Shown here in pieces: positions 5,274 through 20,490 of a stretch of 32,000 nucleotides of DNA (the first letter of the stretch is position 1; each line of letters starts with the position of its first letter). The position numbers were made by a program, and so were the translations under genes. The notes beneath the pieces were generated by a model. That model had not been told where the DNA came from. It ran no database searches and was given only the letters and a program-made list of their open reading frames with translations. The DNA is from Rhodobacter capsulatus SB 1003 (GTDB lineage: Bacteria > Pseudomonadota > Alphaproteobacteria > Rhodobacterales > Rhodobacteraceae). The stretch spans positions 2,220,001 through 2,252,000 of the forward strand of contig NC_014034.1 of the NCBI RefSeq assembly GCF_000021865.1, given 5' to 3'.

Positions 5274-7166
5274 TCAGCCCCGGGCCTTGCGGATCGGGTC
5301 GGCCAGCAGCCGCAGCCCGTTGAGCACCACCAGCACCGTGCCGCCCTCGTGACCGATCACCGCCACCGGCAGCGGCAGCTCGAAGAACAGCCCCGAGAGC
5401 ACCAGAACCGCCATCGCCCCCATGGCGAAGACAAGGTTCTGCCGGATGATCCGCGCCGTGCGGCCCGCCAGCCGGTGCGCTTCGGACAGCCGCGAGATGT
5501 CATCGGCCAGAAGCGCGACATCGGCGGCCTGCAGCGCCACCTCGGAGCCCGCAACCCCCATCGCGATGCCGACATCGGCGCGGGCCAGCGCGGCGGCGTC
5601 GTTCACCCCGTCGCCGACGAAGGCGACCCGGCCCCGCGCGGTCAGATCGGCAACGATCTTCACCTTGTCCTCGGGGCGCAGATCGGCGTGGATTTCATCC
5701 GCGCCGATGCCAAGTTCGGCGCCGATCCGCTCTGCCACCGCGCGCCGGTCGCCGGTCAGCATCGCGATCTGCCCGACCCCGCCCGCCCGCAGCGCCGCCA
5801 GCCCGGCCGGGGTGCTGTCGCGCGGGCGGTCCTCGCAGGTCACCCCGCCAAGGATCTTCGCGCCCCGCCCCAAAAGCACCAGCGTCCGCGGCGCGTTTTC
5901 CAAAACCGCAGGCAGCGCCAGCGTCTCGGCCGCCCGCGCGCCCATCCGCTGCGCCAGCCGCGCATTGCCCGCCCAGATCACCCCCTCGTCATCGACCGCC
6001 ACCATGCCCTCGCCCGGCACGGCCCGCGCCTCGCGCACGGGCAGCGGAACGATGCCGCGGGCGGCGACGTGCTGGCGGATCGCCGTGGCGATCGGATGTT
6101 CGGATTGCGCCTCGATCCCGGCCAGACGGGCCAGAAACAGCGCCTCGTCGCCCTCGCAGTGGATATCGACGATCTCCTGCTTGCCGGTGGTCAGCGTGCC
6201 GGTCTTGTCAAAGGCAAAGGTCTCGACCTTGGCCAGCGTCTCCAAGGCCGCGCCGCCCTTGAACAGAACGCCCCCCCGCGCCGCCACCGACAGCGCCGAG
6301 AGGATCGCGGCGGGAACCGAAATCACGATGGCGCAGGGGCTGGCCGCCACCAGCAGCGTGGCGGCCTTGTAAAGCGCCGCGTTCCAGCCGTGCCCGATCG
6401 CCCAGAAGGCGGCAAAGGCCGAGACCGCGGCCAGCAGAACCGCCACGGTGTAGCGCTGCCCGAACCAGGCCGAGAACCGCTCCGAGGGCGAACGGGCCGC
6501 CTGCGCCTCGGTCACCAGCGCGATCATCCGCGCCACGGTGCTTTCGCCCAGTTCGCGCCGGACCTCGATTTCCAGCACGCCATGCAGGTTCACCGTGGCT
6601 TCAAAGACCTGCGCGCCGGGGGCCTTGTGCACCGGCACGGATTCGCCGGTGATCGTGCTTTCGTCGATCGCCCCCTCGCCCGCGACGATGACACCATCGA
6701 CCGGCACCCGCGCGCCCGGACGCAAGATCACCACATCGCCCGGCACCAGCGTTTCCACCGCCACCTCGACCGTGTCCCCGCCCTGCCGTTTCAGCGCCCG
6801 GTCGGGGCGCAGCTCCATCAGCGCCTCGATCGCCCGGCGTGCCCGCCCCATCGCCCGGTGTTCAAGCGTGGTCGACAGGCTGAACAGCGTCAGCAGGACG
6901 GCCCCTTCCAGCGCCGCCCCCACGGCCGCCGCCGCCAGCGCCGCGACCACCATCAGCAGGTCGATGTCCAGCTGACGCTCCTCGATCAGCGCGCCAACCG
7001 CCCGATAGGCCGCCGGAACCCCGCCGGTCAGAAAGACCGACAAAAGCGCCAGCGTCTCGACCCAGCCACCGCCCAGCCCCGGAAAGATCCAGTGCCCCGC
7101 CGCGGCAAGCACCATCGCCGCAATCGTGGCCCAGGTCAGAACCAGCCTGCTCGTGTCCTCGGTCAT
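5274..7166 (-). CDS. P1B-4-type heavy-metal (Co/Zn/Cd-class) translocating P-type ATPase
   Basis: Start taken at ATG 7166 (MTEDTSRL...) after a GGGAGGAA RBS. Motifs present: TGES, DKTGTLT phosphorylation site, GDGVNDAAAL hinge, transmembrane SPC (AASPCAIV) and HEGGT (IGHEGGTVLV), which are signatures of the P1B-4 subgroup. No N-terminal CxxC/HMA domain; only about 20 aa precede TM1. Confidence 0.88.
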   Translation of the reverse strand: MTEDTSRLVLTWATIAAMVLAAAGHWIFPGLGGGWVETLALLSVFLTGGVPAAYRAVGALIEERQLDIDLLMVVAALAAAAVGAALEGAVLLTLFSLSTTLEHRAMGRARRAIEALMELRPDRALKRQGGDTVEVAVETLVPGDVVILRPGARVPVDGVIVAGEGAIDESTITGESVPVHKAPGAQVFEATVNLHGVLEIEVRRELGESTVARMIALVTEAQAARSPSERFSAWFGQRYTVAVLLAAVSAFAAFWAIGHGWNAALYKAATLLVAASPCAIVISVPAAILSALSVAARGGVLFKGGAALETLAKVETFAFDKTGTLTTGKQEIVDIHCEGDEALFLARLAGIEAQSEHPIATAIRQHVAARGIVPLPVREARAVPGEGMVAVDDEGVIWAGNARLAQRMGARAAETLALPAVLENAPRTLVLLGRGAKILGGVTCEDRPRDSTPAGLAALRAGGVGQIAMLTGDRRAVAERIGAELGIGADEIHADLRPEDKVKIVADLTARGRVAFVGDGVNDAAALARADVGIAMGVAGSEVALQAADVALLADDISRLSEAHRLAGRTARIIRQNLVFAMGAMAVLVLSGLFFELPLPVAVIGHEGGTVLVVLNGLRLLADPIRKARG

Positions 7167-7364
7167 CCCGTTCCTCCCGTGCTGCCGCTTTTCCGCGCCA
7201 CGCGCGGGCGGGTGTCGCGCTCTCATAGCGCGATCGGCCCCGGTTCGGCCAGAGCCGCAAGAGGCGCATGGCGTCGCAACCGGACCCCGGCCAGCCCCCC
7301 GAAATCGCGATGGAATCTCTTTTGCAGAAAGAAGCTGTTAATCAAGCTGGCGTAGCTTGCCCGC

Positions 7365-9542
7365 ATGACACATGCGCTTTCGCCCCGCCAACAGGAAGAC
7401 ATCGCCCTCGGCTCGCCGCAGATGACGGCGCTGCGGGGCCTGTTCCTGATCTGCCTGCACCACGGCGTCACCCTGCCGGTCACCGAAATCCCCGCGCTGG
7501 AAGAGGGCTCCATCGCCCCCCGGCTTGAAGCGACCTTTCAGCGCGCGGGCTTTCGCAGCCGCCAGATCAGCGGCGGCACTTGGCGCACGGCGAAGGGGCT
7601 CGGCTCGGCCTATCCGGCGCTGTGCGAGGGCAAGGACGGCCGCTGGTTCATCCTTGCCCATACCGTCGATCTGCCCGCCGGGCCGCATGCCGCCATCCTT
7701 GACCCCGCGCGCGAAGGCGAGGGCATCCTGTTCCTGCCGCAAGCGGAGTTCGAGGCGCGCTGGTCGGGGCGGCTGATCCTGGCGCGGCTGCGCAAGACCG
7801 AACTTTCGGCACGGCGTCCCTTTGGTCTGGGCTGGTTCATGCCGGCGCTGCTGGAGCAACGCGCGCTGTTTGGCGGCGTGGCGGTGGCGGTGGTGGCGGG
7901 CAACCTCATTGCCTTTGCCCTGCCCTTCCTGATGCAGGTGATGATTGACAGCGTGATTTCCTCGCATGCCTGGAACACGCTGGCGGCGGTGCTGTCGGTC
8001 TATGTGTTTCTGGTGCTGTTCGACGCGGCTTTCAGCTATGTGCGCCAGCGCCTGATGCAGATCTGCGGCGGGCGGCTCGATGCGCGGATCGGCGCGGCGG
8101 TGCATGCGCATCTGTTGTCGCTGCCCTTGTCGATGTTCGAGACGACGGCCGCGGGCGTTCTGGCCCGCAACATGCAACTGACTGAAAAGATAAGGCATTT
8201 TCTGGTCGGGCGGTTGTTTCAGACGATGCTGGATGCCGCGCTTTTGCCGGTTCTGCTGACGCTTCTGGCGCTTTTGTCGGGGCTGATGACGCTGGTCGTT
8301 CTGGGCTTTGCGCTGACCATCGCGGGGCTTCTGGCGGTGTTTTTGCCCGCGCTGCAGCGCCGTCTTTCGGCGCTTTACGACGCCGAGGCGGGGCGGCAGG
8401 CGCATCTGGTCGAGACGCTGCACAACATGCGCACGGTGAAGGCGCTGGTGCTGGAAGGCACGCGGCGCGGGCTTTGGGAAACCGCGCTGGCGCGCACGAT
8501 CCGCAGCCAGTGGCAGGTGGGGGAACTTTCCGCCACCGTCAGCGCGCTAACCTCGCTGATGGAGCGGCTGATGCAGGTCGCGGTGCTGGGCCTTGGCGCC
8601 GAACAGGTGCTCTCGGGGCAGATCAGCGTCGGCACTTTGGTCGCCTTCATGATGCTTTCGGGGCGGGTCACCGGCCCCCTGGTGCAGATCGTCGGGCTGA
8701 TCAACGAATGGCAGGAAGCGGCGCTGGCCGTGCGCACGCTCCGCGGCGTGATGGACCATCCGCCCGAACGCGGCCCCGAGGTGCGGCCGATCCGCCCGCC
8801 CCTGCGCGGGGCGATCCGGATCGAGGATCTGTGCTTCACCTATCCCGGCACCGCGACGCCCGCGCTCGATCATCTGACGCTCGACATCGCCGCCGGGCAG
8901 GTGATCGGCATTGTCGGGCGTTCGGGCTCGGGCAAGACGACGCTGACGCGGCTGCTGCAGGGCATCGGCTCGGCGCAATCGGGCCGCATCCTTTACGACG
9001 GCAATGACGCGCGCCACATCGACCTTGACCATCTGCGCCGTTCGGTCGGCATCGTGCTGCAGGAAAACGTGCTGTTCCGCGGCACCTTGCGCGAAAACAT
9101 CGCGCTCGCCCGTCCCGATGCCAGCCACGAGGCGGTGCTGCGCGCCGCGACGCTGGCGGGGGCGGCGGAATTCATCGACCGGCTGCCGCAGGGGCTCGAC
9201 ACCCCGGTCGAGGAAGGCGGGGCGAACCTTTCGGGCGGGCAACGGCAACGCATCGCGCTCGCGCGCGCGCTGCTCGCCGATCCGCCGATCCTGATCCTGG
9301 ACGAGGCGACCAGCGCGCTTGACCCCGAATCCGAGGCGGTGGTGAACCGCAACCTCGCCGCCATCGCGCAGGGGCGCACGGTGATCGTGGTCTCGCACCG
9401 GATGAGTTCGCTGGCGCATTCGGATGCGATCCTGGTGCTGGATCGCGGCCGGATCGAGGATTTCGCGCCCCATGCGGTGCTTCTGGCGCGCTCGCCGACC
9501 TATCGACATCTGTGGCTGCAACAGGCGGGGCAGACGGAATGA
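7365..9542 (+). CDS. Type I secretion system ABC transporter (HlyB family) with N-terminal C39-like domain
   Basis: 725 aa. The N-terminal region of about 140 aa resembles a C39 peptidase or C39-like domain. It is followed by a 6-TM ABC exporter domain. Walker A GRSGSGKTT, signature LSGGQRQRIALARA and Walker B ILILDEATSALD are present. The residue I align to the C39 catalytic Cys is Thr (QMTALRGLFLICLHHG), suggesting an inactive CLD as in HlyB. That alignment was done by eye. Confidence 0.9.
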   Translation: MTHALSPRQQEDIALGSPQMTALRGLFLICLHHGVTLPVTEIPALEEGSIAPRLEATFQRAGFRSRQISGGTWRTAKGLGSAYPALCEGKDGRWFILAHTVDLPAGPHAAILDPAREGEGILFLPQAEFEARWSGRLILARLRKTELSARRPFGLGWFMPALLEQRALFGGVAVAVVAGNLIAFALPFLMQVMIDSVISSHAWNTLAAVLSVYVFLVLFDAAFSYVRQRLMQICGGRLDARIGAAVHAHLLSLPLSMFETTAAGVLARNMQLTEKIRHFLVGRLFQTMLDAALLPVLLTLLALLSGLMTLVVLGFALTIAGLLAVFLPALQRRLSALYDAEAGRQAHLVETLHNMRTVKALVLEGTRRGLWETALARTIRSQWQVGELSATVSALTSLMERLMQVAVLGLGAEQVLSGQISVGTLVAFMMLSGRVTGPLVQIVGLINEWQEAALAVRTLRGVMDHPPERGPEVRPIRPPLRGAIRIEDLCFTYPGTATPALDHLTLDIAAGQVIGIVGRSGSGKTTLTRLLQGIGSAQSGRILYDGNDARHIDLDHLRRSVGIVLQENVLFRGTLRENIALARPDASHEAVLRAATLAGAAEFIDRLPQGLDTPVEEGGANLSGGQRQRIALARALLADPPILILDEATSALDPESEAVVNRNLAAIAQGRTVIVVSHRMSSLAHSDAILVLDRGRIEDFAPHAVLLARSPTYRHLWLQQAGQTE

Positions 9543-10855
9543 TCCAGCTTGGCTCCATCGACCGCGAGGCCATCGCCTTTCAGGAAGAGCTTGACCGGGT
9601 GCAGGTCGAGCCGGTGCCGGTGCTGTTGCGGCTCTGGCCGTTTCTGGCGGCGGCGCTGCTGGCGGGGCTCGTCGGGCTTGCCGCCTTCCTGCGCGTCGAT
9701 GTCGTGGTGACGGCCCCGGGCCAGCTGGCTGCGGCCGAACCGCCCCTGATGCTGCGCCCGGCCGCCAGCACCCGGCTTGACGCGCTTCTGGTGCGTCCGG
9801 GTGATGTGGTCGTGGCGGGGCAGCTGCTGGCGCGGCTCGATCCGACCCAGCCCGAGGCCGATCTGGCCGCGCTCGAGGCCGAACGCGATGCGCTTTCGGC
9901 CCGGATCGCGCGGCTGACGGCGGAACTTGAAGGCGGCGTGCTGGCCGAAACCGGCCCCGCGCTGGCCGCGGAAGCCGATGTGCTGACCGAGCGGCGGCTG
10001 GAAAGCCGCACCAAGGCCGAGGCGCTGCAGGCCGAGATCGCCTCGGCCGAGGCCCTGATCGAAGCGGAAACCCGCGATGGCGCGGGGCTGCGCGAGCAGC
10101 TCTCGATCCTGCGCGAGGTCGAGGCGATGCGCAACACCCTCGCCGAACGGCAGAGCGGCTCGCAACTGGCGGTGCTCGATGCGCGGCTGATGCGGCTGCG
10201 CGCCGAGGCCGATCAGCGCGCCCATGAAAGCCGCCTGGCCGAATTGCGCGACCGCCGCGACCGCGCCATCGCCGAACATCGGATGTTCCTGACCAGCCTG
10301 AAACGCACCGCGAGCGAGCAGCTGGCGGAAGCCGGGCCGCGGCTGCAGGTCGTCGAGGAGCAGATCGCCAAGGCCCGCGCGCTGCGGGAAATGGCCGATC
10401 TGGTCGCCCCCCGTCCGGGCGTGGTGCTGCGCGTCGCCGAGGGCGGCGTCGGCAGCCTGATCCCGGCGGGCAATCCGGTGGTGGTTCTGGTGCCAACCGA
10501 TGTGCCGCTTCTGGCCGAGATCGGGCTGCGCTCGACCGATGCCGGGCGGGTGGTCGCGGGCGATCCGGTCTCGATCAAGATCGACGCCTTTCCCTGGCGC
10601 GAACACGGCCAGCTGACCGGCTCCCTGACCGAGGTCGGCCATGCCAGCTACCGCGCGCAGGGCGCTTCGGAGGCGCAACACCCCGCCCATGTCGCGCTTG
10701 ATCCCGCCGCGGTGCTGGAGAACCTGCCGCCCGCGGCGACGCTGCTGCCCGGCATGACGCTTTCGGCCGAGATCCACACCGGCACCCGGTCGGTTCTCTC
10801 CACCTTCTTCGAGCCGATCCTGCGCGGACTGGCCGAAGCGCTGCGCGATCCGTGA
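9539..10855 (+). CDS. HlyD-family type I secretion membrane fusion protein
   Basis: ATG at 9539 overlaps the ABC stop codon (ATGA), indicating translational coupling. It has one N-terminal TM segment, a long Ala/Glu/Arg/Leu-rich coiled-coil region (RIARLTAELE..., ALQAEIASAEALIEAE...) and a C-terminal beta-barrel-like region. This architecture and the gene order match HlyB-HlyD. Confidence 0.85.
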   Translation: MIQLGSIDREAIAFQEELDRVQVEPVPVLLRLWPFLAAALLAGLVGLAAFLRVDVVVTAPGQLAAAEPPLMLRPAASTRLDALLVRPGDVVVAGQLLARLDPTQPEADLAALEAERDALSARIARLTAELEGGVLAETGPALAAEADVLTERRLESRTKAEALQAEIASAEALIEAETRDGAGLREQLSILREVEAMRNTLAERQSGSQLAVLDARLMRLRAEADQRAHESRLAELRDRRDRAIAEHRMFLTSLKRTASEQLAEAGPRLQVVEEQIAKARALREMADLVAPRPGVVLRVAEGGVGSLIPAGNPVVVLVPTDVPLLAEIGLRSTDAGRVVAGDPVSIKIDAFPWREHGQLTGSLTEVGHASYRAQGASEAQHPAHVALDPAAVLENLPPAATLLPGMTLSAEIHTGTRSVLSTFFEPILRGLAEALRDP

Positions 10856-10905
10856 TCGCGATGACCCTTTCCCCCGTTTCAGATCGCCCCATGAAGGAGA
10901 ATCCC

Positions 10906-11514
10906 ATGACCGACGCGACCCCGATCGAAACCGCCGATGCGGTGCCGATGACCGCAACCAGGACCGTGCTGCATGTCGGCTGCGGGGTTGCCCATCCGGC
11001 GAAACTGCCCGAGGCCTATTTTCCGCTCTCCGACTGGCGCGAGGTGCGGCTTGACATCGATCCCGACGTCGCCCCCGATATCGTCGCCAGCCTGACCGAC
11101 ATGTCGGCCGTCGCCGATGCCAGCGTCGATGCGGTCTGGTCGTCGCACAATCTGGAACATCTGGCGCCGCATGAAGTTCCGGTGGCGCTGGCCGAATTCA
11201 TCCGGGTGCTGAAACCGGGCGGTTTCGCGCTGGTGACCATGCCCGATCTTCAACAGGTCGCGACGCTGGTGGCCGAGGGGCAGCTTGAAGAGCCCGCCTA
11301 CATGTCGAGCCTCGGCCCGATCTCGCCGCTCGACATCCTTTACGGCTATCGTCCCGCGCTGGCCGAGGGCAACATCTTCATGGGGCACCGCACCGGCTTC
11401 ACCGCCCGGTCGCTGCGCGAGCACCTGACCCGTGCCGGTTTCGCCGGGGTGACCGTCGAACGCGACGGCCGCTTCGCGCTCTGGGGGGTCGGCACCCGGC
11501 TCGCCACGGCCTGA
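10906..11514 (+). CDS. Class I SAM-dependent methyltransferase (Methyltransf_11-like), third gene of the T1SS operon
   Basis: ATG at 10906 is preceded by AAGGAGA with 5-nt spacing. VLHVGCG (motif I), D at the end of beta-2 (RLDIDP) and VLKPGGFALV (post-motif) are typical of the Rossmann methyltransferase fold. It lies 50 nt downstream of the MFP on the same strand. Confidence 0.8.
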   Translation: MTDATPIETADAVPMTATRTVLHVGCGVAHPAKLPEAYFPLSDWREVRLDIDPDVAPDIVASLTDMSAVADASVDAVWSSHNLEHLAPHEVPVALAEFIRVLKPGGFALVTMPDLQQVATLVAEGQLEEPAYMSSLGPISPLDILYGYRPALAEGNIFMGHRTGFTARSLREHLTRAGFAGVTVERDGRFALWGVGTRLATA

Positions 11515-11553
11515 TCCGGCCAGACCGGCGACAGCACCTCGGATTGCAAGGCT

Positions 11554-11587
11554 CAAAAGGTCCGGATCCCCCGATCCGGACCTTTTG
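11554..11587. terminator. Bidirectional intrinsic-terminator-like hairpin (15-bp perfect stem, CCCC loop, A-tract/T-tract arms)
   Basis: CAAAAGGTCCGGATC-CCCC-GATCCGGACCTTTTG. It lies 40 nt after the methyltransferase stop, in the convergent intergenic region. Confidence 0.6.
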
Positions 11588-11660
11588 GCATGCGGCTCCC
11601 CCTTGGCGATGGCCAAGACCGGGTCCGGCCCCCGGCCGTTGTCGCGTGCGGACAGGAAAA

Positions 11661-11684
11661 CGGGGCTTCCAGACGGAAGCCCCG
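11661..11684. terminator. GC-rich hairpin (10-bp stem, AGAC loop)
   Basis: CGGGGCTTCC-AGAC-GGAAGCCCCG in the convergent intergenic region between the methyltransferase and the octad-repeat gene. Confidence 0.4.
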
Positions 11685-11695
11685 GATCGGGAAAT

Positions 11696-11719
11696 CCGCT
11701 TCCGCCGAAGCGGAAGCGG
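11696..11719 (-). terminator. Hairpin immediately downstream of the octad-repeat gene (10-bp stem, 4-nt loop)
   Basis: CCGCTTCCGC-CGAA-GCGGAAGCGG, 17 nt after the stop at 11736. On the minus strand it is followed by GATTTCCC. Confidence 0.5.
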
Positions 11720-11735
11720 CCGTTGTCGGATCGGA

Positions 11736-14507
11736 TCAGAGCAGCAGGGCCGAGCGCTGTTCGTCGCTCAGATAGCCAAGCTGGGTCGTGCTGAACGCCG
11801 CCACCTGGACCGAGGTCAGCGCCGCGAGATCCGCCGTTTCCATCGCGCCGAGCATCCCGGCATCAAGCCCGGCCAGCTGGGCAGTGGTCAGGCCGATGAC
11901 CTGCTTGGTGCCCAGCGCGGCAACGGCGCCCGCGGTCAGCTCGTTCAGCGACGCGATCGACATCGCCCCGATCTGCGCGCTCGTGAGGTTGGCGATCTGC
12001 GCCGTGGTGAAGCCCGCCCCCTGTTCCGAGGTCAGCGCCGCCAGCTGGACCGTGGTCAGGGCCTTCACCGCGGTGGAGCTCAGCGCGCCGAAGTCCTGGC
12101 TTTCAAGCGCACCGATCTGGGCCGTCGACAGCGTCGCCACCTGCGTGGCCGACAGCGTCGCCGCCTGCGCCGTGGTCAGGGCGTCGATCTGCCCCGTGCT
12201 CAGCGCGGTGATCTGGGTCGAGCTCAGCCCCTTGATCGCAGCCGTCGAGAGCGCGGCGAAATCCGCCGTCTGCAGCGCGGAGATCTGCGCCGTGCTGAGC
12301 GCCGCCACCTGCGTCGAGCTCAGCGCGGCGGCCTGACCGGTCGTCAGCGCCACGATGTCATCGGTGCCGAGCCCCGCCAGAGCCGCCGCCCCGAGCGCCT
12401 TGACCTGCGCCGTGGTCAGAACGGTGTTGATCTGCGTCGTGGTCAGGCCGGTCAGCTGCGCCGAACCGAGAACCGCGACCTGCGCCGTCGTCATCTTCGC
12501 CAGCGTGGCATTGGCCAGCGCGGCGATATCGGCGCTCTCCAGCCCCTTGATCGCCGCCGTGGTGATCTGCGCGATCTGATCGGTGCCGATCGCCCCCGCC
12601 TGCGCCGTGGTCAGCGCCGTGATCTGCGTCGACGAGAAGCCCTTGAAGGTCGCGGCCGAGAGCTTGGCAAGATCGGCCGTCTCCATCGCCGCAACCAGCG
12701 AGGTGCTCAGCGCGGCGATCTGGCTCGAGCTGAGCGCCGGTGCCTGGGTGGTGGTCAGCGCCACGATGTCGGCGGTTTCAAGGCCAAGAATGTTGCTTGC
12801 CGTCAGACCCTTGATCTGCGCCGTGCCAAGCGCCGCGATCTGCGCCGTGGTCATGGCGCGGATCTGCGAGGAGCTGAGCGCGGCGATCTGGGCCGAGGTC
12901 AGCGCCTGCGCTTCGGCCGTGGTCAGCCCCGCCATGTCGGCCGTGCTGAGCCCCTTGACCGCCGCGGTCGAGAGCAAGCCGATCTGGGTCGAGGTCAGCG
13001 CCCCCGCCTGCGCATCGGACAGCGCCGCGATCTGCGCCGAGGTCAGGCCCTTGACCGCCGTGGTGGTCAGGCTGGCGATATCCGCGCTTTCGATTCCGCC
13101 GACCTGGCCGGTCGTCATCGTCGCGATCTGCGCCGAGGTCAGACCGCCGATCTGCGTCGCCGTGAACGCCGTCATGTCCGCCGCGGAAAGCCCCTTGATC
13201 CCGGCGGTCGAGAGCAGGCCGATCTGCGTCGAGGTCAACTGGCCCAGCTGGGTCGTGGTCAGCGCATTGACCTGAACCGAGCCGAGGCCCTTGATCGCGC
13301 CGGTGCTCAGATCATCGATGGCGCCGGTGGCGATCGCCGCGATCTGACCCGTGCTCATGGCGGCCAGATGCTTGTCGGTCAGGCCCTTGACCTGCGCCGT
13401 GGTCAGGGCGGCAACGGTGGCGGTGGCGACACCGACGACACCGGTGGCGCTGATCGCGGCAATCTGCGTCGAGCTCAGCCCGGCCACGGTCGCGGTGCTC
13501 AGGCCCTGCAGCTGCGTCGAGGAGAGCGCGGCCAGCTGCGCGGTGGTCAGCGCGGCAACCTCGGTCGAGGTCAGGTTGGTGCTCAGATCCGCCGAGGAGA
13601 GGCCCTTGACGGCGGTGGCGCTGAGGTTGGCGATCTGCGCCGTGGTCAGCTCGCCGACCTGCGCGTCGGTCAGCCCACTCACCTGCGCCGAGCCGAGCCC
13701 CTTCACCGCAGCGGTGGTCAGGCTGGCAATCGCGGTGCTGGCGATGTCGTCGATCTGCGTCGAGGTCAGCGCGGCCACCTGTTTCGAGGAGAGCGCCGCC
13801 ACCCGCGCGGTGTCAAGCGCCCCGAGGAAGCCCGAGGTCAGACCGGCGACCGAGGTCGCGTTCAGCGCGGCCACCTGCGCCGTGCTCAGCAGCGGCGCCT
13901 GCGTCGAGGTCAGATCGTCGAGCTGCGTCGAGGTCAGCGCGCCGATTTGCGCGGTGGAGAAACCGGCAAGCTGCGCCGAGGTGAAGGCGGCCAGTTCGTT
14001 CGCTTCCAGCCCCCGCACCGCCCCGGTGGTGAGGCCCGCAAGCTGTTCGGCCGTCAGCGCGGCGGCCGCGGCGCTGGTCAGCGCGGTGACCTGCGCCGAG
14101 GACAGGCCGGCGATGCCGGTGGCGGTCAGGCCCGCGATGACGGTCGTGGTGACGTTGGGGAGCTGCGTGGTGGTCAGCGCGGCAAGCTGCGTCGAGGTCA
14201 GGACCGCGGCCTGATCGGAGCTCAGCGCGCCGAGCGCGGCGCCGCTCAGCCCCTTGATGCCCGCGGTGGTCAGCACCGCGATCTGGGTGCCCAGCAGCGC
14301 CGGAACCTGGGTCGCGGTCAGCCCCGCAACCTGCGTCGAGGTCAGAACGCGCAGGTTTGCCGTGCCAAGCACCGGCAGCTGATCGGTGGTCAGCGCCCCG
14401 AGCTGGGCGGAAGACATCGAGGCGACATCCGCCGTCGTGAGAGCCGCGATTGCCGCCGTCTCCAGCGCGGCAATCTGGGTCGTCGTCATATTGGAAATGG
14501 CCGTCAT
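11736..14507 (-). CDS. Octapeptide-repeat protein: 923 aa made of 114 consecutive 8-residue repeats (consensus T-[TS]-[AT]-Q-[IVL]-[AG]-[AG]-L); function unknown
   Basis: The 958-aa ORF has a TTG at 14612. I place the start at ATG 14507 (MTAISNM...) because third-position GC drops sharply in the 35 codons upstream and a GGGAA lies about 8 nt before this ATG. An alternative ATG lies near 14590. After 7 residues the whole protein is octads down to ...SDEQRSALLL*. There is no signal peptide, no Cys or Trp, and very few charged residues. GC3 is very high throughout. Confidence 0.85.
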   Translation of the reverse strand: MTAISNMTTTQIAALETAAIAALTTADVASMSSAQLGALTTDQLPVLGTANLRVLTSTQVAGLTATQVPALLGTQIAVLTTAGIKGLSGAALGALSSDQAAVLTSTQLAALTTTQLPNVTTTVIAGLTATGIAGLSSAQVTALTSAAAAALTAEQLAGLTTGAVRGLEANELAAFTSAQLAGFSTAQIGALTSTQLDDLTSTQAPLLSTAQVAALNATSVAGLTSGFLGALDTARVAALSSKQVAALTSTQIDDIASTAIASLTTAAVKGLGSAQVSGLTDAQVGELTTAQIANLSATAVKGLSSADLSTNLTSTEVAALTTAQLAALSSTQLQGLSTATVAGLSSTQIAAISATGVVGVATATVAALTTAQVKGLTDKHLAAMSTGQIAAIATGAIDDLSTGAIKGLGSVQVNALTTTQLGQLTSTQIGLLSTAGIKGLSAADMTAFTATQIGGLTSAQIATMTTGQVGGIESADIASLTTTAVKGLTSAQIAALSDAQAGALTSTQIGLLSTAAVKGLSTADMAGLTTAEAQALTSAQIAALSSSQIRAMTTAQIAALGTAQIKGLTASNILGLETADIVALTTTQAPALSSSQIAALSTSLVAAMETADLAKLSAATFKGFSSTQITALTTAQAGAIGTDQIAQITTAAIKGLESADIAALANATLAKMTTAQVAVLGSAQLTGLTTTQINTVLTTAQVKALGAAALAGLGTDDIVALTTGQAAALSSTQVAALSTAQISALQTADFAALSTAAIKGLSSTQITALSTGQIDALTTAQAATLSATQVATLSTAQIGALESQDFGALSSTAVKALTTVQLAALTSEQGAGFTTAQIANLTSAQIGAMSIASLNELTAGAVAALGTKQVIGLTTAQLAGLDAGMLGAMETADLAALTSVQVAAFSTTQLGYLSDEQRSALLL

Positions 14508-14789
14508 GGTAGGTTCCCGGGTTGAAGGATCAACAAACTGCTCCACCGGGGCGTTCCCCCGACAGGCATCGGCCAGTTCTCGGCCACACATGACACCGGA
14601 CGATGCGCGCAAGCGGTTACAGAGCCGTTAAATCCGCCCCTTCCGGGCCCTCGGACCCCGGGAAAATTAGCTCGAATTCAATTCAACCCGGGCTTTGGCG
14701 CCCGAAACCGGGCCGCGTTTACCGCGGATTTACCTTGCGATGCGAGGCTTGCGCCGAGGCCTCTGCGAAGGTCGGCATCCAGAAGGAGT

Positions 14790-16649
14790 TTGCCCTTGCC
14801 ATCCGTCGTTCCGTTCCTGCCCCTGCCCGGCGACACCCAGACGATCGCTGCGGCGCTGCACCAGCCCGGCGGTTTCACGGCCCAGGGCGATCTGGCACCG
14901 CATCTGGCGCGCGCGGTGGCGGCGCTCGGGATCGAGGGGCTGGTCAGCATCGGCGAGGCCGCGGCTCCGGCGCAGGGGGTGGCGCTTTACCGCGCCTGGC
15001 TCTTGCAGCACGGCCAGAAAGGGGACTCGGCGGCGGCCTGGTACAATCTCGGTGTCGCGCTGCAGCGGATGGGCAAACATGCCGAGGCCACGGCGGCGCT
15101 TGAGACCGCGCAAAGGTTGCGGCCGGGCCTGTGGCAGGCCGGTCTCGGCCGCGGGCTGGCCTTCGAGGCGGCGGGCGCCCCCGACAGCGCGCTCAGCGTC
15201 TGGCGCGAGCTTCTGCCCCCCGCCGAGGCGCGACGGCAGATCCACATCCAGCTGGCGCGGCTTCTGGAAGACCGCGGCCGTCTGGGCGAGGCGATCGAAG
15301 AAGCACGGGCGGCGCTCCTGATCGACCCCGACCAGCCCGACGTGATCCAGCATCTGGTGCACAACCGTCAGCGCACCACCACCTGGCCGGTGACCGAGGT
15401 CGCGGTGCCCGGCATTTCCGAGGAGCTGGCGGCGCGGCATGCGGGCCCTCTCGCGGCGCTGGCGCTGGTCGACGATCCGGCGCGGCAGGCCGAGATCTGC
15501 GCCAGCTGGATCGGCCGCAAACTGCCCGCGGCACCGCAGCTTCTGGCGCCTGCGGGCGGCTATGCCCATGACCGCGTGCGCATCGGCTATCTGTCGTCGG
15601 ATTTCTGCCGCCATGCGATGAGCTATCTGATCGCCGAGTTGCTGGAACGCCATGACCGCACCCGCTTCGAGATCTGGGGCTATGATGCCACCCGCGACGA
15701 TGGCAGCGACGTGCGCGCCCGGGTTCTGGCGGCGCTCGACCATCACGTCCCGATCCAGGACATGACCGACGAGGCCGCCGCCGCGCGCATCCGCGCCGAT
15801 GAGATCGACATCCTGATCGATCTGAACGGGCTGACCAAGGGCGCGCGTCCGGCGATCTTGCGGGCGAAACCGGCGCCGATGCAGGTCACCTATCTGGGCT
15901 ATATCGGCCCGGTGCCGCTGCCCGAACTCGATTATCTGCTGTGCGACGCGGTCACCGTGCCGCCCGGGGCCGAGGCCGATTACAGCCCCCGCCCGCTGCG
16001 GATCGCGGGCTGCTATCAGGCCAATGACGGTGTCATGCCGCAGCTGCCCGCCGTCACCCGCGCCGAGGAAGGCCTGCCCGAGGATGCCGTGGTCTTCACC
16101 TGCGTCTCGCATCATTACAAGCTGACCGAGGCGGTCTGGGGCGCCTGGTGCCGCATCGTCGCCCGGGTGCCCGGTTCGGTGCTCTGGATCATCGACGACA
16201 ACCCGGAGTCGCGCGCGGCGCTGACGGCGCGCTGGGGTGCGGCGGGGCTGGCGCCCGAACGGCTGATCTTTGCCGCCCGCACCGACCCCGCCCGCTACCG
16301 CGCCCGGCTGGCCTTGGCCGATCTTTTCCTCGACACCACGCCCTACAACGCGGGCACGATCGCCTCGGATGCCTTGCGGATGGGGCTGCCGCTGATCACC
16401 ACGCGCGGCCGGGCCTTTGCCGCGCGGATGGGGGCAAGCCTGCTTACCGCGATCGGCCTGCCCGACTGCATCGCCGAGGATCTGGCGGGCTACGAGGATC
16501 TGGCGGTGGCGATCGGAACCGATCCGGCGCGGCTTGGGGCGCTCAAGGCGCATCTGGCGACCGGCGCCTGGGAACGCACGCTGGGCGATGCCGAGGATTT
16601 CACCCGCCGCTTCGAAGCTGCGCTGCTGGCGGGCCGGGCCGCGCTCTGA
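14790..16649 (+). CDS. TPR-containing GT41-family glycosyltransferase (O-GlcNAc transferase / SPINDLY-like)
   Basis: 619 aa. TTG start at 14790, or at 14796 with better spacing from GAAGGAG at 14783-14788. The N-terminus has about 3 TPR-like units (AAWYNLGVALQRMGKHAEATAALETAQRLRP...). The catalytic region aligns by eye with human OGT: RIGYLSSDFCRHAMSYLI vs RVGYVSSDFGNHPTSHLM, LIDLNGLTKGARPAILRAKPAPMQVTYLGY vs [30 protein letters not shown], and PGSVLWII...DLFLDTTPYNAGTIASDALRMGLPLIT vs PNSVLWLL...[27 protein letters not shown]. Confidence 0.9.
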   Translation: MPLPSVVPFLPLPGDTQTIAAALHQPGGFTAQGDLAPHLARAVAALGIEGLVSIGEAAAPAQGVALYRAWLLQHGQKGDSAAAWYNLGVALQRMGKHAEATAALETAQRLRPGLWQAGLGRGLAFEAAGAPDSALSVWRELLPPAEARRQIHIQLARLLEDRGRLGEAIEEARAALLIDPDQPDVIQHLVHNRQRTTTWPVTEVAVPGISEELAARHAGPLAALALVDDPARQAEICASWIGRKLPAAPQLLAPAGGYAHDRVRIGYLSSDFCRHAMSYLIAELLERHDRTRFEIWGYDATRDDGSDVRARVLAALDHHVPIQDMTDEAAAARIRADEIDILIDLNGLTKGARPAILRAKPAPMQVTYLGYIGPVPLPELDYLLCDAVTVPPGAEADYSPRPLRIAGCYQANDGVMPQLPAVTRAEEGLPEDAVVFTCVSHHYKLTEAVWGAWCRIVARVPGSVLWIIDDNPESRAALTARWGAAGLAPERLIFAARTDPARYRARLALADLFLDTTPYNAGTIASDALRMGLPLITTRGRAFAARMGASLLTAIGLPDCIAEDLAGYEDLAVAIGTDPARLGALKAHLATGAWERTLGDAEDFTRRFEAALLAGRAAL

Positions 16650-16756
16650 CGCGCTCGGCCGCCTGCCCCCCCCCTGCCCCCGCAACGGGCGCAGTCTGCA
16701 CAGTCCGGCGGCGCCTGTCGCCGGATTGTCATGAAAGCTTCACTGGACGGGGGGAT

Positions 16757-16778
16757 TGCTTCCTGTATTCAGGAAGCA
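16757..16778 (+). promoter_or_regulatory. Perfect 9-bp inverted repeat overlapping the RBS and start codon of the arsR-arsC fusion gene (candidate operator or RBS-sequestering hairpin)
   Basis: TGCTTCCTG-TATT-CAGGAAGCA. The right arm contains the AGGAAG Shine-Dalgarno, and its last A is the A of ATG 16778. Confidence 0.4.
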
Positions 16779-17623
16779 TGGAAAACACTTGCCCCACCCC
16801 CGAGGCCGCCGCGGCCTTTGCCTGTCTTGGCCATCCCGGTCGCCTGTCGGTGTTCCGGATGCTCATGCGCTTTGCGCCGCAGGGCGTGCGGCCCACCGAA
16901 ATCGCCGCGGCGCTGGGGCTGAAGCCAAACACCCTCTCGCATCATCTGGCGGATCTGACTGCTTGCGGGCTGGTCACAGTCACCCGGCAGGGGCGGTCGC
17001 TTTTCTACGCCGTCGATCTTCACAAAACCGAATCCCTGATCGGCTATCTCGCCCTCGATCTGGGCCGGGCCCGGCCCGACCTGATGCCCAAAGCTCTTCA
17101 TGAAAAGGCAAATCCCATGCCCGACACGCCCTTCAACGTGCTTTTCATCTGCTCGGGCAATTCCGCCCGCTCGATCTTTGCCGAGGCGCTCCTGCGCGAT
17201 CTGGGCGCGGGCAAGTTCACCGCCCATTCCGCCGGAACGCGGCCCGGGACCGCGATCAACCCTTTCGCGCTCGAGGTGCTGAGCCGCAACGGCCATGACA
17301 CCGGGGGCCTGCGCGCCAAGCATCTGTCGGAGTTCCAGGGCCCCGCCGCGCCGCAGATGGAGTTCGTCTTCACCGTCTGCGATACGGCGGCGGCCGAGGA
17401 CTGCCCGCCCTGGCCCGGTCAGCCGATCACCGGCCATTGGGGCCTGCCCGATCCGGTCAAGGCCACCGGCACCGAGGCCGAACGCGCGCTGGTTTTCGCC
17501 CAGACCTACGGGGCGCTGCGCCGCCGCATTGCCGCCTTTGTCGACCTGCCCTTTGCCACGCTCGACCGGCTGGCGCTGCAAACCCGCGTCGATGCGATCG
17601 GCGCCCTGCCCGAAAAGGCCTGA
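16778..17623 (+). CDS. ArsR/SmtB-family HTH regulator fused in frame to an LMW-PTP-type (thioredoxin-coupled) arsenate reductase ArsC
   Basis: ATG 16778 follows an AGGAAG RBS. The upstream part of the 491-aa ORF overlaps the GT41 gene and is rejected. The N-terminal half has a winged-helix ArsR-like region (LGHPGRLSVFRML...PTEIAAALGLKPNTLSHHLADLTACGLV...GRSLFY). The C-terminal half has the CX5R P-loop FICSGNSARS and a distal Cys pair VCDTAAAEDCP. No stop codon separates the two halves. Confidence 0.8.
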   Translation: MENTCPTPEAAAAFACLGHPGRLSVFRMLMRFAPQGVRPTEIAAALGLKPNTLSHHLADLTACGLVTVTRQGRSLFYAVDLHKTESLIGYLALDLGRARPDLMPKALHEKANPMPDTPFNVLFICSGNSARSIFAEALLRDLGAGKFTAHSAGTRPGTAINPFALEVLSRNGHDTGGLRAKHLSEFQGPAAPQMEFVFTVCDTAAAEDCPPWPGQPITGHWGLPDPVKATGTEAERALVFAQTYGALRRRIAAFVDLPFATLDRLALQTRVDAIGALPEKA

Positions 17624-17626
17624 GCC

Positions 17627-18634
17627 ATGGCGAGACTTGCGATCAACGGCTTGGGCCGGATGGGAAAACTGCTCTTGCGGCGGCTCATCGATCTGGGGCG
17701 CGGGCCCGAGATCGTGCTTTTGAACGACGCCATGGGCGACGCCGAAACCCATGCGCTGCTGCTCGAGTTCGACACGGTGCATGGCCGCTGGCCGACCCCG
17801 GTTGCCGCCACCGAAACCGGGCTTCAGATCGCGGGGCAGCGCATCCGGCTGACGCGGGAAAAGACCCTTGAAGCCCTGCCCCTGGCCGAGATCGGGGTCG
17901 ATCTGGTGCTCGATTGCACCGGGCAGTTCAAGACCGCGGCCAAGGTCCAGCCCTATTTCGATGCAGGCGTGCGCAAGGTCGTCGTTTCGGCCCCGGTCAA
18001 GGATACGGGCGCGCTGAACCTCGTCTATGGCGTGAACCACGTGCTTTACGATGGCAGCCAGCGGCTGATCACGGCGGCGTCCTGCACCACCAACTGCCTG
18101 GCCCCCATCGTGAAGGTGATCCACGAAGCGCTTGGGATCAAACACGGATCCATCACCACACTGCATGACGTGACGAACACGCAAACGATCGTCGACCGCC
18201 CCGCGAAAGACCTGCGCCGGGCGCGGTCGGCGCTGATGAACCTCATTCCCACCACCACCGGCTCGGCCACGGCGATCACGCTGATCTATCCCGAGCTGAA
18301 AGGGCGGCTCAATGGCCATGCCGTCCGGGTGCCGCTTTTGAATGCCTCGCTGACCGATTGCGTCTTCGAACTTGACCGCCCGACCACGGTCGCAGAGGTG
18401 AACAGCCTTCTGCAGACCGCCGCCGAGGGAGGGCTGAACGGCATCCTCGGTTTCGAGACGCGGCCGCTGGTGTCGTCGGATTTCACCAACGACCCGCGCT
18501 CGGCGGTGATCGACGGCCCCTCGACGATGGTGGTCAATGGCACGCAGCTCAAGCTTTACGCCTGGTATGACAACGAATGGGGCTATGTCTGCCGGATGGC
18601 CGATATCGCCCGAATGGTGGCGGGGTCGTTGTGA
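17627..18634 (+). CDS. gap: Glyceraldehyde-3-phosphate dehydrogenase, ArsJ-associated type
   Basis: 335 aa. [11 protein letters not shown]-binding N-terminus and catalytic SCTTNCLAP are present. It starts 3 nt after the arsRC stop, and its stop overlaps the arsJ GTG start (GTGA). Confidence 0.9.
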
Positions 18635-19467
18635 GCGCCAATCCGATCCGCGCCTACGCTGCCGTCACCGCCGCCTATTGGGCCTTCATGCTCACCGATG
18701 GCGCGCTGCGGATGCTGGTGCTGTTGCAGTTCAACGGGCTGGGCTTCAGCCCGGTCGCGCTGGCCTGGCTGTTTCTGCTTTACGAAGTCGCGGGCATTGC
18801 CACCAATCTTGGCGCGGGCTGGCTGGCGGCGCGGTTCGGCCTGGCCGCCACGCTTTACGGCGGGCTTGGCCTGCAGGTCGCGGCGCTGGTCGCGCTGACG
18901 CAGCTGGACCCGGGCTGGTCGATCCCCGCCTCGGTCGCTTTCGTGATGGCGGTGCAGGGTGTCTCGGGCGTTGCCAAGGATCTGGCCAAGATGTCGTCGA
19001 AATCGGCGGTGAAACTGCTCGCCCCCAGCGGCGAGGGCGGGCTGTTTCGCTGGGTGGCGGCGCTGACCGGGTCAAAGAACGCGGTGAAGGGGCTCGGCTT
19101 CTTCCTTGGCGCGGCGCTTCTGGCGCTTGTCGGCTTCAAGCCGGCGATCTGGGGCATGGCGGGGCTTCTGGCGGCGATCCTGATCGCGGTCGTGGCCTTC
19201 CTGCCCAAGGGCCTGCCCGGGAAGATGAAATCCGACGAGGCCTGGGGCGGCTGGCGGTCGCAGGACCCGCAGGTGAACCGGCTTTCGCTGGCGCGGATGT
19301 TCCTTTTTGGCGCCCGCGATGTCTGGTTCGTCGTCGGGCTTCCGGTCTATTTCCAGGCGGTTCTCTCCGACGGCACCGCCGAGGGCCGCCGCGAGGCGTT
19401 CTTTCTGACCGGCGGTTTCATGGCGCTCTGGATCATCGCCTACGGCGCGGTGCAGGCCTTCGGGGGC
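18631..19467 (+). pseudogene. arsJ: arsJ (MFS organoarsenical / 1-arseno-3-phosphoglycerate efflux permease), 3'-truncated
   Basis: GTG 18631 starts (M)[40 protein letters not shown]...LFLLYE..., a typical ArsJ N-terminus. Membrane-like sequence stops after about 279 aa at ...WIIAYGAVQAFG. The ORF then reads through Arg-rich nonsense to 20205, antisense to an integrase remnant. Full-length ArsJ is about 400+ aa (from memory). The junction coordinate is approximate (plus or minus 15 nt). Confidence 0.7.
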
Positions 19468-20325
19468 AGCATTCGCAAGCACTCTCGCGCGGGTCTTCGT
19501 CAGCACGGCGGGCGGCAGCGGGTCGCGCTTCTCCGACGCCTTCTGTCCCTGTCCCTTCGCCACCCGCGCCACGGGCAAGCGGCTGAACGGGTTCGGCATC
19601 GTGTCGGGCATCCCGAACTCGACCTTGGCGAAGTTGACCACGGCGGACAGGATCGCCAACTCCCGCGACACCGTTGCCGCGCTGACCTTCGTCCCTGTCC
19701 CTTTGCCCGTCGCCTTCACCCGGTCAAGCATGTGATCGCGGACGGCGCGGGCGTCCTCTGGCGTGATGGCGGTCAACAGCGGATCGCGCCCGATGGCAGC
19801 GATTGCCGCCTCCACAACGCGGGTCGCAAGCCCCACAACGCGGCTGTCCGTCTCCGGGCTGTCCGCTTTCAGATGCTCTTTCAGATAGAGCCGCAGGGCG
19901 TCCCCCAAGGTCGGCTCCGGGGGCCTGCAGCGTTCCGGCCCAAGGCGCAGAAGGTTGACCGTGTGGCGATCCACCGGGGGCGCTCCGAGGGGTTCATAGC
20001 CCACTTGCGGGAAGCTCTCGGCCAGAGAATCGGCAGCGATTTCCAAGGCTTCCTCGGTCGCGCCACGCGCCACCAGATCGGCCCGACGCAGCCACCGCCC
20101 CGGCCATCCTTTTCTTCGCCGCCTCAATCTCGCGCTCCACCTGGGCGTGATACTGAGGACAGGCGGCAAGGGCTTCCTTCTGGGAATCGCCCGGCTTGCG
20201 CTTGAACTCGCGCTTGGGGATGACCTCGGAAACGTCCTTGGGAACCTGCGGCGGTATTGCCGGCTTCCCGATCTGGTTTGCTCAACGTGCTTCAAGACAA
20301 GCCCCGTATGTGCTCGAATGTGCAC
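19455..20325 (-). pseudogene. Phage/ICE-type tyrosine integrase remnant: N-terminal arm/core-binding part only, at least 2 frameshifts, catalytic domain missing
   Basis: Frame A gives ...SRQYRRR. A -1 shift near 20245 is then needed to read VPKDVSEVIPKREFKRKPGDSQKEALAACPQYHAQVEREIEAAKKR. A second shift at about 20080-20115 returns to ...ADLVARGATEEALEIAADSL...TLGDALRLYLKEHL...ITPEDARAVRDHMLDR...SAATVSRELAILSAVVNFA...DPLPPAVL. These are typical of integrase N-terminal and SAM-like domains. No R-K-H-R-H-Y catalytic region follows. The remnant lies directly next to the 3' end of a tRNA gene. Confidence 0.65.
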
Positions 20326-20382
20326 CGGAAGGGACGCAAGGGCCAGAAGATATTGAGAAATTTGACCCTAATAGGGTTCAGT

Positions 20383-20456: not shown

Positions 20457-20490
20457 GTTGAGCGTCAGATAAGCGATGCCTCAGCCGCCG

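Follow-up and report, generated by a model that had tools for sequence, protein, structure and literature searches.

The gene on the minus strand at positions 11736-14507 of a 32,000-nucleotide window of the Rhodobacter capsulatus SB 1003 genome (NC_014034.1, positions 2,220,001 to 2,252,000 of the forward strand; "the window" is this whole stretch) encodes a protein of 923 residues built from 114 tandem octapeptides, a minimal, repeat-only member of the catalogued but uncharacterised Pfam family PF20080, the ALTTAQ repeat. Structure prediction and the likeness to a solved designed protein indicate, with high probability, that each octad forms one short α-helix and that the array is an uninterrupted alpha-helical screw. 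Genes for a type I secretion system (T1SS), a methyltransferase and a glycosyltransferase of family 41 (GT41) lie around it, and from this synteny we infer export and glycosylation: the protein may be a T1SS-exported, O-glycosylated helical-screw rod, a composite reading to which we give an about even chance.

The ALTTAQ-repeat gene and its product

The gene and its immediate surroundings comprise the following features:

11736-14507, minus strand: ALTTAQ-repeat coding sequence, 923 aa, 114 octads, stop codon at 11736-11738 (translation, Pfam PF20080, substitution rates, AlphaFold2)
14487-14507, minus strand: N-terminal heptapeptide MTAISNM, a cap motif conserved family-wide (homologue comparison)
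13572-13574, minus strand: register slip 1, an extra Leu (residue 312) after octad 38
12417-12419, minus strand: register slip 2, an extra Leu (residue 697) after octad 86
11739-11840, minus strand: C-terminal cap ETADLAAL TSVQVAAF STTQLGYL SDEQRSAL-LL, a candidate uncleaved C-terminal type I secretion signal (putative function)
11661-11684, minus strand: intrinsic-terminator-like hairpin, 10-bp stem with 8 G-C pairs, then TTTTCC, about 50 nt past the stop codon
14508-14789, no strand: divergent intergenic region of 282 bp between the ALTTAQ and GT41 genes (sequence read)

The minus-strand frame is open from 14612 to 11736, and translation from the ATG at 14507 gives a protein of 89 kDa (MTAISNM...SALLL) that parses, after the heptapeptide, into exactly 114 octads and a terminal LL, with the two single-leucine slips at the positions listed. 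This parse, proposed in the initial annotation, was reproduced, as were its hand counts by octad position. Position 8 is L/M/F/I/V in 113 of the 114 units, with SSADLSTN as the sole exception, and position 5 is I/V/L/F/M in 103; position 4 holds Gln in 65 units, Asp in another 12. Ser or Thr stands at position 1 in 88 units and at position 2 in 91; counted as T/S/D/N, position 1 reaches 91 units, with Gly in 9 and Glu in 8 others. Position 2 is T/S/A, all five Pro residues of the protein fall at position 6, and the consensus reads (S/T)-(S/T)-A-Q-(I/V/L)-A-(A/G)-L. Residue identity at a lag of eight is 0.333, compared with 0.123 +/- 0.010 in 2,000 shuffles (z = 21, shuffle maximum 0.153), and the sequence is periodic at 8, 16 and 24 residues. 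The N-terminus (MTAISNMTTTQ) leads directly into the repeats and lacks the hydrophobic core of a signal peptide, and there is no non-repeat domain; both points had been made from the letters alone, together with a composition that holds as described, with no Cys, no Trp, 45 acidic (D+E) versus 24 basic (K+R) residues and an isoelectric point of 4.3 (4.30 to two decimals). Ala, Thr, Leu and Ser make up 62% of the residues, and the 239 Ser/Thr compare with just 7 N-x-S/T sequons.

At the DNA level the units are degenerate, since Tandem Repeats Finder sees periods of 24, 48 and 96 nt in short patches only, with 63-85% matches. A dominant 24-nt period had been expected from Fourier analysis; once the 3-nt codon period is set aside, the leading periods are 2.4, 3.43, 2.67, 12 and 4 nt, each of them a harmonic of 24 nt.

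The open reading frame (ORF) is a real gene under purifying selection. The ratio of nonsynonymous to synonymous substitution (dN/dS) against the three other R. capsulatus alleles is 0.26-0.29, and the GC content by codon position is 0.63/0.57/0.90. A Shine-Dalgarno-like GGGAA at 14514-14518 lies 6 nt before the ATG at 14507, and the extension upstream of this ATG is not open in the orthologue of strain SP36; no sigma-70 consensus promoter was found in the ALTTAQ/GT41 intergenic region. The four R. capsulatus alleles share one exact length, 923 aa, align without gaps and keep both register slips. Their amino acid identity is 83-85%, versus 89-98% for the flanking ABC transporter, HlyD, methyltransferase and GT41 proteins, and no gene of the locus evolves faster between these strains than the repeat gene. 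The substitutions keep the residue class (S and T exchanged at positions 1-2, I/V/L at 5, L/F/M at 8, and A/G swaps), and Gln 4 is the least variable octad position, varying in 10 of the 114 units across the four alleles. These class-keeping substitutions and the degenerate DNA patches bear out the earlier suggestion that the repeats are old and maintained at the protein level, and rapid drift with fixed length and register is in keeping with a surface-exposed structure for which length is important. The opposite strand has a periodic, Arg/Gly/Gln-rich ORF of 993 aa (11544-14525, plus strand) that runs over the repeat gene from end to end. It is a shadow frame produced by the high-GC, periodic DNA, and an annotator could take it for a gene.

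Pfam PF20080 ('ALTTAQ repeat', ALTTAQ_rpt) matches the protein with 550.4 bits against a gathering threshold of 26.4 bits (E=1e-169), in 33 stretches that cover it, and the initial annotation, which had recognised no named repeat family, has to be corrected on this point. It had also held that a confident match to a family of known fold and function would remove the novelty; the confident match exists, but PF20080 is a named family with neither a solved natural structure nor an assigned function, and the novelty is not removed. The NCBIfam scan of the protein gave no match, an exact-sequence look-up of the protein with four alternative starts and of three neighbours found no identical entry in the collection searched, and Pfam matches to Phage_TAC_7, HTH_25, Sigma70_r4_2 and Gp5_trimer_C were rejected as spurious products of short periodic or low-complexity sequence. 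A literature search on ALTTAQ/PF20080 found no paper about the family, and further searches, on GT41 in type I secretion, on SPINDLY in Rhodobacter, on the T1SS of R. capsulatus and on substrates of bacterial OGT, found nothing on it.

The family is large. A word-indexed search returned 409 homologues, and an exhaustive search returned 1,705, 676 and 131 cluster representatives at E<=1e-3, 1e-10 and 1e-30, the first figure being a lower bound for the family in public data. Database labels of the relatives include 'hypothetical', 'heme utilization protein', 'trimeric autotransporter adhesin' and 'beta strand repeat-containing protein', and the last three are mislabelling. With homologues in alpha-, beta- and gamma-proteobacteria the R. 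capsulatus protein shares the octad consensus and a start motif, M-x-x-I-x-x-(L/M)-(S/T)-x-x-Q-I-A-A-L, which is followed in the homologues, two or three octads later, by a unit with Asp at position 4. The repeat-only alpha-proteobacterial group to which it belongs ends in a conserved four-unit cap and then FL or LL; this cap with its hydrophobic end (..NALFL, ..SALLL) is found in Rhodovulum, Amaricoccus and an Asaia-labelled metagenome-assembled genome (MAG), and Siccirubricoccus carries a variant ending, ..NAMFAV.

Most PF20080 relatives are larger (1,200-5,600 aa), unlike the repeat-only R. capsulatus protein and its Rhodobacteraceae kin, and add to the array a calcium-binding-like DxDGDG/'ADVWF' region, calpain, metalloprotease, or RTX, cadherin and G8 domains. 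ALTTAQ arrays range from 114 to more than 600 octads, and across the family they are fused to domains of extracellular type (RTX, cadherin, Calx-beta, G8, metalloprotease). The giant members, of 2,000-5,600 aa, carry up to several hundred near-perfect octads and a C-terminal region of 250-350 aa with DxDGDG-type motifs and 'ADVWF' at its end, then an acidic tail behind which they close with ..PLI, ..PLL or ..VLI. No Pfam or NCBIfam model matched this region in the copies scanned, and it may correspond to PF26745 of precomputed annotations. In two of the loci surveyed below, residues ~2130-2481 of the protein from L005 and the last ~300 aa of that from L011 share calcium-binding-like DxDGDG/DxNxDG motifs and '...H-x-x-ADVWF'. 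Two further arrangements are recorded here as observations. At 10001-24029 of locus L076, two ALTTAQ paralogues of ~1,340 aa stand 8 kb apart and flank five genes with no recorded Pfam match, followed by a 2-oxoglutarate-Fe(II) oxygenase gene. On a plasmid of Polaromonas sp. JS666 (locus L082), the gene for a 996-aa repeat-only ALTTAQ protein (Bpro_5533) is surrounded by those for IS66, ISL3 and DDE transposases and for an integrase, and neither T1SS nor GT41 genes lie nearby; it exemplifies a mobile or orphan ALTTAQ gene.

Predicted fold of the octad array

The full-length AlphaFold2 (AF2) model, built on an alignment of 54 sequences, has a mean per-residue confidence (pLDDT) of 91.8 with no segment below 50, and is strand-free: it consists of about 110 helices, each octad forming one helix of 5-6 residues in the general pattern and of 4-8 over the whole chain. 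A 128-aa segment was modelled with a pLDDT of 93.5 and a predicted TM score (pTM) of 0.84 and shows the same one-helix-per-octad pattern; its alignment consisted of overlapping 16-octad windows that MAFFT slid onto one another (312 columns), and these are not in register. When the helices are mapped onto the octad, position 1 (T/S, sometimes G/E/D) would be the N-cap, Gln 4 its capping-box partner at N3, and positions 5 and 8 the core. Of the two structural readings offered in the initial annotation, the S/T-x-x-Q capping box with very short helices is thus upheld by the models (pLDDT 92-93) and by the likeness to the solved structure 9ZEM, and the beta-solenoid of ice-nucleation or antifreeze type finds no strand in any AF2 model. 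A length of about 30-45 nm can be estimated for the rod by assuming 2.5-4 units per turn and ~1 nm per turn, and is not taken from coordinates.

The sole significant match of the sequence in the PDB is 9ZEM, 'HeliScrew4' (E=1e-11; profile E=1.2e-20), in register over 13-14 units. It is a crystallised de novo 8-mer 'alpha-helical screw' of 120 residues, solved at 2.2 A, and the rules of these designs are small polar N-caps (S/T/D/N), an apolar core, one helix per 8-mer and 2.5-4.0 units per superhelical turn, wound clockwise (bioRxiv 10.64898/2025.12.04.691947). In the PDB their authors found just one natural case, 7QLR, and they ask why nature does without the fold, which they place in its 'dark matter' (bioRxiv 10.64898/2025.12.04.691947). 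The R. capsulatus protein shares with the 8-mer designs the tandem octads, the one short helix that is predicted for each, the small polar N-cap and the apolar core, and the similarity extends to the unit itself, L-T-P-E-Q-I-A-A in HeliScrew4 and L-T-T-A-Q-I-A-A in ALTTAQ. HeliScrew4 is a tightly wound superhelix, and the secondary-structure pattern predicted for the ALTTAQ protein is the same in kind. A helix-initiating Pro at N1, frequent in the designs, was not found at this place in the R. capsulatus protein, which has Thr or Ser instead, although some Pseudomonas units do have Pro (KPAQVAAL); the R. capsulatus protein is also 7.7 times longer than HeliScrew4. As the designs were derived from random repeats, the likeness has to be put down to convergence and not to common descent. 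The natural example 7QLR, tied to UniProt A0A487D782 in one paper, was not found by sequence or profile search of the PDB with the ALTTAQ protein.

The other structural matches are of a different kind. The top Foldseek match of the 128-aa model is mesothelin (8CX3), with a query-normalised TM score of 0.55, a root-mean-square deviation (rmsd) of 4.9 A over 121 columns, probability 1.0, E=0.027 and 14% identity; mesothelin is likewise a superhelix of short helices, but these are longer and irregular and there is no 8-residue unit. With the full-length model Foldseek returned generic HEAT/ARM solenoids only (TM 0.1-0.2, rmsd 20-50 A), which are uninformative. Weak matches to leucine-rich repeats (LRR) were obtained in Pfam (LRR_EndoS, E=1e-9) and, in the PDB, with LRR proteins both designed and natural (E=1e-5 to 1e-3); the likeness lies in a Leu periodicity commensurate with 24 residues, and since the models have no strands the matches reflect this periodicity. 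The LxxLxLxxN/C motif is absent, and the protein was rejected as an LRR. A beta-solenoid ice-binding or ice-nucleation protein was rejected as well, given the all-helical prediction and the lack of any match to such families in Pfam or the PDB.

Gene neighbourhood and proposed export and glycosylation

The genes around the ALTTAQ gene in the window are:

1700-5074, minus strand: RTX-serralysin, an M10 metalloprotease of 1,124 aa with 16 RTX stretches, ending ..GDFLL
5274-7226, minus strand: heavy-metal (Zn/Cd-type) P-type ATPase, between the RTX protease and T1SS genes
7365-9542, plus strand: HlyB-type type I secretion ABC permease/ATPase, 725 aa, Pfam ABC_membrane and ABC_tran, with an N-terminal extension of ~170 aa
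9512-10855, plus strand: HlyD-family adaptor, 447 aa, TIGR01843 at 228.7 bits (cut-off 208.65), Pfam HlyD_3
10852-11514, plus strand: class I S-adenosylmethionine-dependent methyltransferase, ~200-220 aa, Methyltransf_11 E=2e-11; the true start may be downstream of 10852
14790-16649, plus strand: tetratricopeptide repeat (TPR) and GT41 glycosyltransferase of the OGT/SPINDLY family, 619 aa, Glyco_transf_41 (PF13844) E=1.6e-66 plus TPRs

The best NCBIfam match of the ABC protein is TIGR01846, type_I_sec_HlyB (E=7e-167), whose 556.7 bits lie below the curated cut-off of 725.55. The methyltransferase gene is the last of the ABC-HlyD operon and is convergent with the ALTTAQ gene; in the PDB its product finds weak matches only, such as a D-glucose O-methyltransferase (E=4e-4), which are too weak for a substrate to be assigned. 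Orthologous loci with the same gene order are present in R. capsulatus SP36, SP108 and DSM 1710.

To see which neighbours are conserved, 75 species-level loci of relatives were surveyed, the ORFs within 10 kb being clustered and searched with the proteins of the window. The following counts are lower bounds, since a contig edge cuts off many of the loci or a giant gene takes up the space:

TPR-GT41: 28 of 75 loci, the commonest neighbour family
T1SS ABC protein: 17 of 75 loci
HlyD adaptor: 14 of 75 loci
Methyltransferase: 14 of 75 loci, with 56-61% identity in Pseudomonas and 70% in Rhodovulum
TolC-like OEP: 9 of 75 loci
GT4 glycosyltransferase: 5 of 75 loci, in loci without GT41

GT41 is present in loci from alpha-, beta- and gamma-proteobacteria as well as in one Pelobacter-labelled MAG; among the genera are Rhodobacter, Rhodovulum, Amaricoccus, Methylocystis, Hydrogenophaga, Limnohabitans, Pseudomonas and Methylomonas. 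The reverse look-up agrees, as three of three GT41 orthologues (in Cereibacter johrii, Stagnihabitans tardus and one further genome) stand divergently beside an ALTTAQ gene, and two of these three also adjoin the ABC-HlyD-methyltransferase genes. The divergent ALTTAQ/GT41 arrangement is kept in Rhodobacter, Rhodovulum, Amaricoccus, Cereibacter and Stagnihabitans, and in Pseudomonas the cluster order is methyltransferase, ALTTAQ-GT41, OEP-HlyD-ABC. Loci L078, L079 and L081 have T1SS genes beside ALTTAQ genes, and the first two have the methyltransferase as well. The last, from Buttiauxella gaviniae, encodes at 187-14715 a C39-peptidase ABC protein and HlyD, directly followed by two ALTTAQ proteins with a C-terminal calpain (Peptidase_C2), and then one more calpain protein; both its T1SS, of another subtype, and its branch of the family, which bears proteases, set it apart.

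ALTTAQ genes have T1SS genes near them in genera without the RTX protease, namely Rhodovulum, Cereibacter, Stagnihabitans, Pseudomonas, Massilia and Buttiauxella, and among the 75 loci the protease stands beside the cluster solely in three from R. capsulatus; the T1SS association therefore tracks the ALTTAQ gene and not the protease. The protein has several traits of type I cargo, being acidic, Cys-poor and free of an N-terminal Sec signal and encoded next to ABC and HlyD genes, and family members end either in hydrophobic LL/FL after the four-unit cap or in ..PLI/..PLL after acidic residues. From these sequence features we judge that it is probably T1SS cargo. In the same traits it resembles repetitive surface proteins secreted by T1SS, among them the RTX adhesins LapA, SiiE and MpIBP and the S-layer protein RsaA, to which can be added a long tandem-repeat body that presumably projects from the cell and a candidate signal at the C-terminus. 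RTX adhesins have RTX nonapeptides, BIg or cadherin extender domains and a retention module, whereas the Pfam scan of the ALTTAQ protein detected neither BIg/cadherin extenders nor an N-terminal retention module; their extenders are beta-sandwich domains of ~100 residues, whereas that of ALTTAQ would be an alpha-helical screw of 8-residue units.

The product of 14790-16649 aligns with human OGT at E=9e-68 and with XcOGT at E=3e-63, and its catalytic motifs align too, DFCRHA with DFGNHP (the His of DFxxH) and HHYKL with QLYKI (the Lys of YK); on sequence grounds it is a true OGT/SPINDLY homologue. For bacterial homologues of OGT and SPINDLY, one source describes roles and native substrates as still largely unclear (PMC11329713), and another states that GT41 enzymes of the HMW1C type glycosylate the adhesin of a neighbouring gene before export (PMC10507012). 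The R. capsulatus locus is like HMW1A/HMW1B/HMW1C in combining, in one cluster, a cytoplasmic GT41 enzyme, a large, repetitive exported surface protein (in R. capsulatus a candidate one) and a dedicated exporter, and the proposed order of glycosylation in the cytoplasm and subsequent export would be the same. The two differ in that HMW1C is of the N-glycosyltransferase type and the R. capsulatus enzyme of the TPR-OGT/SPINDLY type, and in that HMW1 uses two-partner secretion for a beta-helix cargo, whereas R. capsulatus would use a T1SS for a predicted helical-screw cargo whose glycosylation is suggested by synteny. Whether the ALTTAQ protein is the substrate of the adjacent GT41 is, to judge from the conserved adjacency, evenly poised.

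We envisage the following course. Each octad would form one short α-helix, with positions 5 and 8 packed into a continuous apolar core, so that the N-capped units would wind into a single uninterrupted rod, with no globular domain and with N- and C-terminal caps only. Before export, the cytoplasmic TPR-GT41 would O-glycosylate some of the ~240 Ser/Thr, the likelier target being the exposed N1 hydroxyl at octad position 2, and the co-conserved methyltransferase would modify the sugar or the protein. The adjacent HlyB/HlyD T1SS would then export the chain unfolded and C-terminus first, the hydrophobic C-terminal end serving as an uncleaved signal, and folding outside the cell would yield a stiff, sugar-decorated surface fibre or spacer. 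In the giant homologues of 2,000-5,600 aa, the same array would be the body of T1SS exoproteins with a C-terminal calcium-binding-like domain.

Beyond the cluster, the window holds an arsenic-resistance block on the plus strand (16148-20205), in which an ArsR-type helix-turn-helix protein is fused with or next to a low-molecular-weight, ArsC-like phosphatase, followed by an 'ArsJ-associated' GAPDH (17627-18634), identical to R. capsulatus proteins, and a major facilitator superfamily (MFS) transporter (18577-20205). The block has a known arrangement for organoarsenical efflux. On the minus strand at 20491-26162 follow in a row a RACo-like corrinoid-activation ASKHA protein (20491-22530), a PAS protein (22640-23890) and a GGDEF-EAL protein (24006-26162).

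Alternative explanations and implications

Several points weigh against the proposal of an exported, glycosylated helical screw. AlphaFold can be over-confident on Ala/Leu-rich periodic sequence, and Foldseek searches of the PDB with the full-length and the 128-aa models returned neither 9ZEM nor 7QLR. As regards export, no RTX GGxGxD nonapeptides are present (no HemolysinCabind match to the ALTTAQ protein in the Pfam scan), and the RTX-serralysin at 1700-5074, a canonical T1SS cargo, may share the adjacent T1SS or could be its true cargo. As regards glycosylation, the donor-binding motif of the GT41 protein (residues ~515-527) reads PYNAGTI, compared with PYNAHTT in XcOGT and LCNGHTT in human OGT, and because the His is missing the donor sugar may not be UDP-N-acetylglucosamine; plant SPINDLY, a GDP-fucose enzyme, likewise has no such His. 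We know of no proven glycosylated T1SS cargo that passes through the narrow channel of this system. Finally, 47 of the 75 loci have no GT41 within reach and most loci have no T1SS genes, many of these loci being cut by contig ends or filled by a giant gene.

These points define the alternatives. The protein could be a T1SS-exported helical-screw rod and still not be a substrate of the GT41 and the methyltransferase, which would modify another protein or regulate the locus. Helix N-capping already explains Ser/Thr at positions 1-2, and the loci without GT41 within 10 kb and the lack of any known glycosylated T1SS cargo point the same way. Yet across four proteobacterial lineages no neighbour family is as frequent as GT41, and every reverse look-up placed it next to an ALTTAQ gene; GT41 enzymes are protein glycosyltransferases, and those of the HMW1C type adjoin their adhesin substrates (PMC10507012). 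We consider this alternative rather unlikely. It is more doubtful still that the fold is as predicted and the protein is not T1SS cargo, the T1SS serving the RTX-serralysin and the repeat protein remaining inside the cell or leaving by another route. A canonical RTX protease with a DFLL terminus in the same locus, the lack of RTX repeats in the ALTTAQ protein and the fact that OGT-type enzymes usually act on cytoplasmic proteins would all suit it, but it has to face the T1SS genes beside ALTTAQ genes in protease-free genera, the fusion of the family to extracellular-type domains and the conserved hydrophobic C-terminus.

The remaining explanations concern the fold and the gene itself. An LRR-like structure or a beta-solenoid with three octads per 24-residue turn and Thr-lined faces, as in ice-binding and ice-nucleation proteins, could account for the weak LRR matches, the periodicity of 8, 16 and 24 residues and the abundant Thr; it is very improbable, as both AF2 models are strand-free at pLDDT >90, there is no Asn ladder and no LxxLxLxxN, the match to HeliScrew4 is much stronger and the capping-box Gln is the most conserved position. 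We find it just as hard to accept a low-complexity, disordered, mucin-like Ser/Thr/Ala-rich chain whose periodicity is a relic of duplication. The high share of A/T/L/S and the spurious low-complexity Pfam matches are what such a chain would show, but a strict hydrophobic i/i+3/i+8 pattern runs through all 114 units despite degenerate DNA, substitutions keep class position by position, the four alleles are of equal length and the pLDDT is above 90 throughout, with no segment below 50. The probability of an untranslated chance frame in high-GC repeat DNA is negligible. The antisense ORF, also open, does indicate that long frames arise easily here; its product, though, is an Arg/Gly-rich shadow, and the repeat gene has the dN/dS and Pfam values given above, a terminator after its stop codon and homologues with a conserved N-terminus in hundreds of taxa.

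The exported, O-glycosylated rod thus remains our preferred reading. The fold, reported as nearly absent from nature, is hereby linked to a natural family of considerable size, whose sequence clusters, 1,700 or more in number, suggest that the helical screw is in heavy natural use, in arrays of hundreds of units and with Thr/Ser instead of Pro at the helix start. The identification of the ALTTAQ repeat also exposes mislabelled relatives in the databases. An OGT/SPINDLY homologue that is tightly and repeatedly linked to a Ser/Thr-rich candidate export protein offers a concrete substrate candidate in an organism amenable to genetics. Extended to the family as a whole, the proposal becomes tentative, and we regard it as possible but doubtful that ALTTAQ proteins at large are widespread natural alpha-helical-screw fibres, an undescribed class of T1SS cargo and, through a surface lined with Ser/Thr, the native substrate of bacterial GT41 enzymes of the OGT/SPINDLY type, with a partner methyltransferase. 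If this were true, there would be a defined substrate, linked by its gene, for bacterial OGT homologues and an atlas of natural sequences of the fold for protein designers, and a non-RTX, all-helical and possibly glycosylated fibre would join the catalogue of type I secretion cargo.

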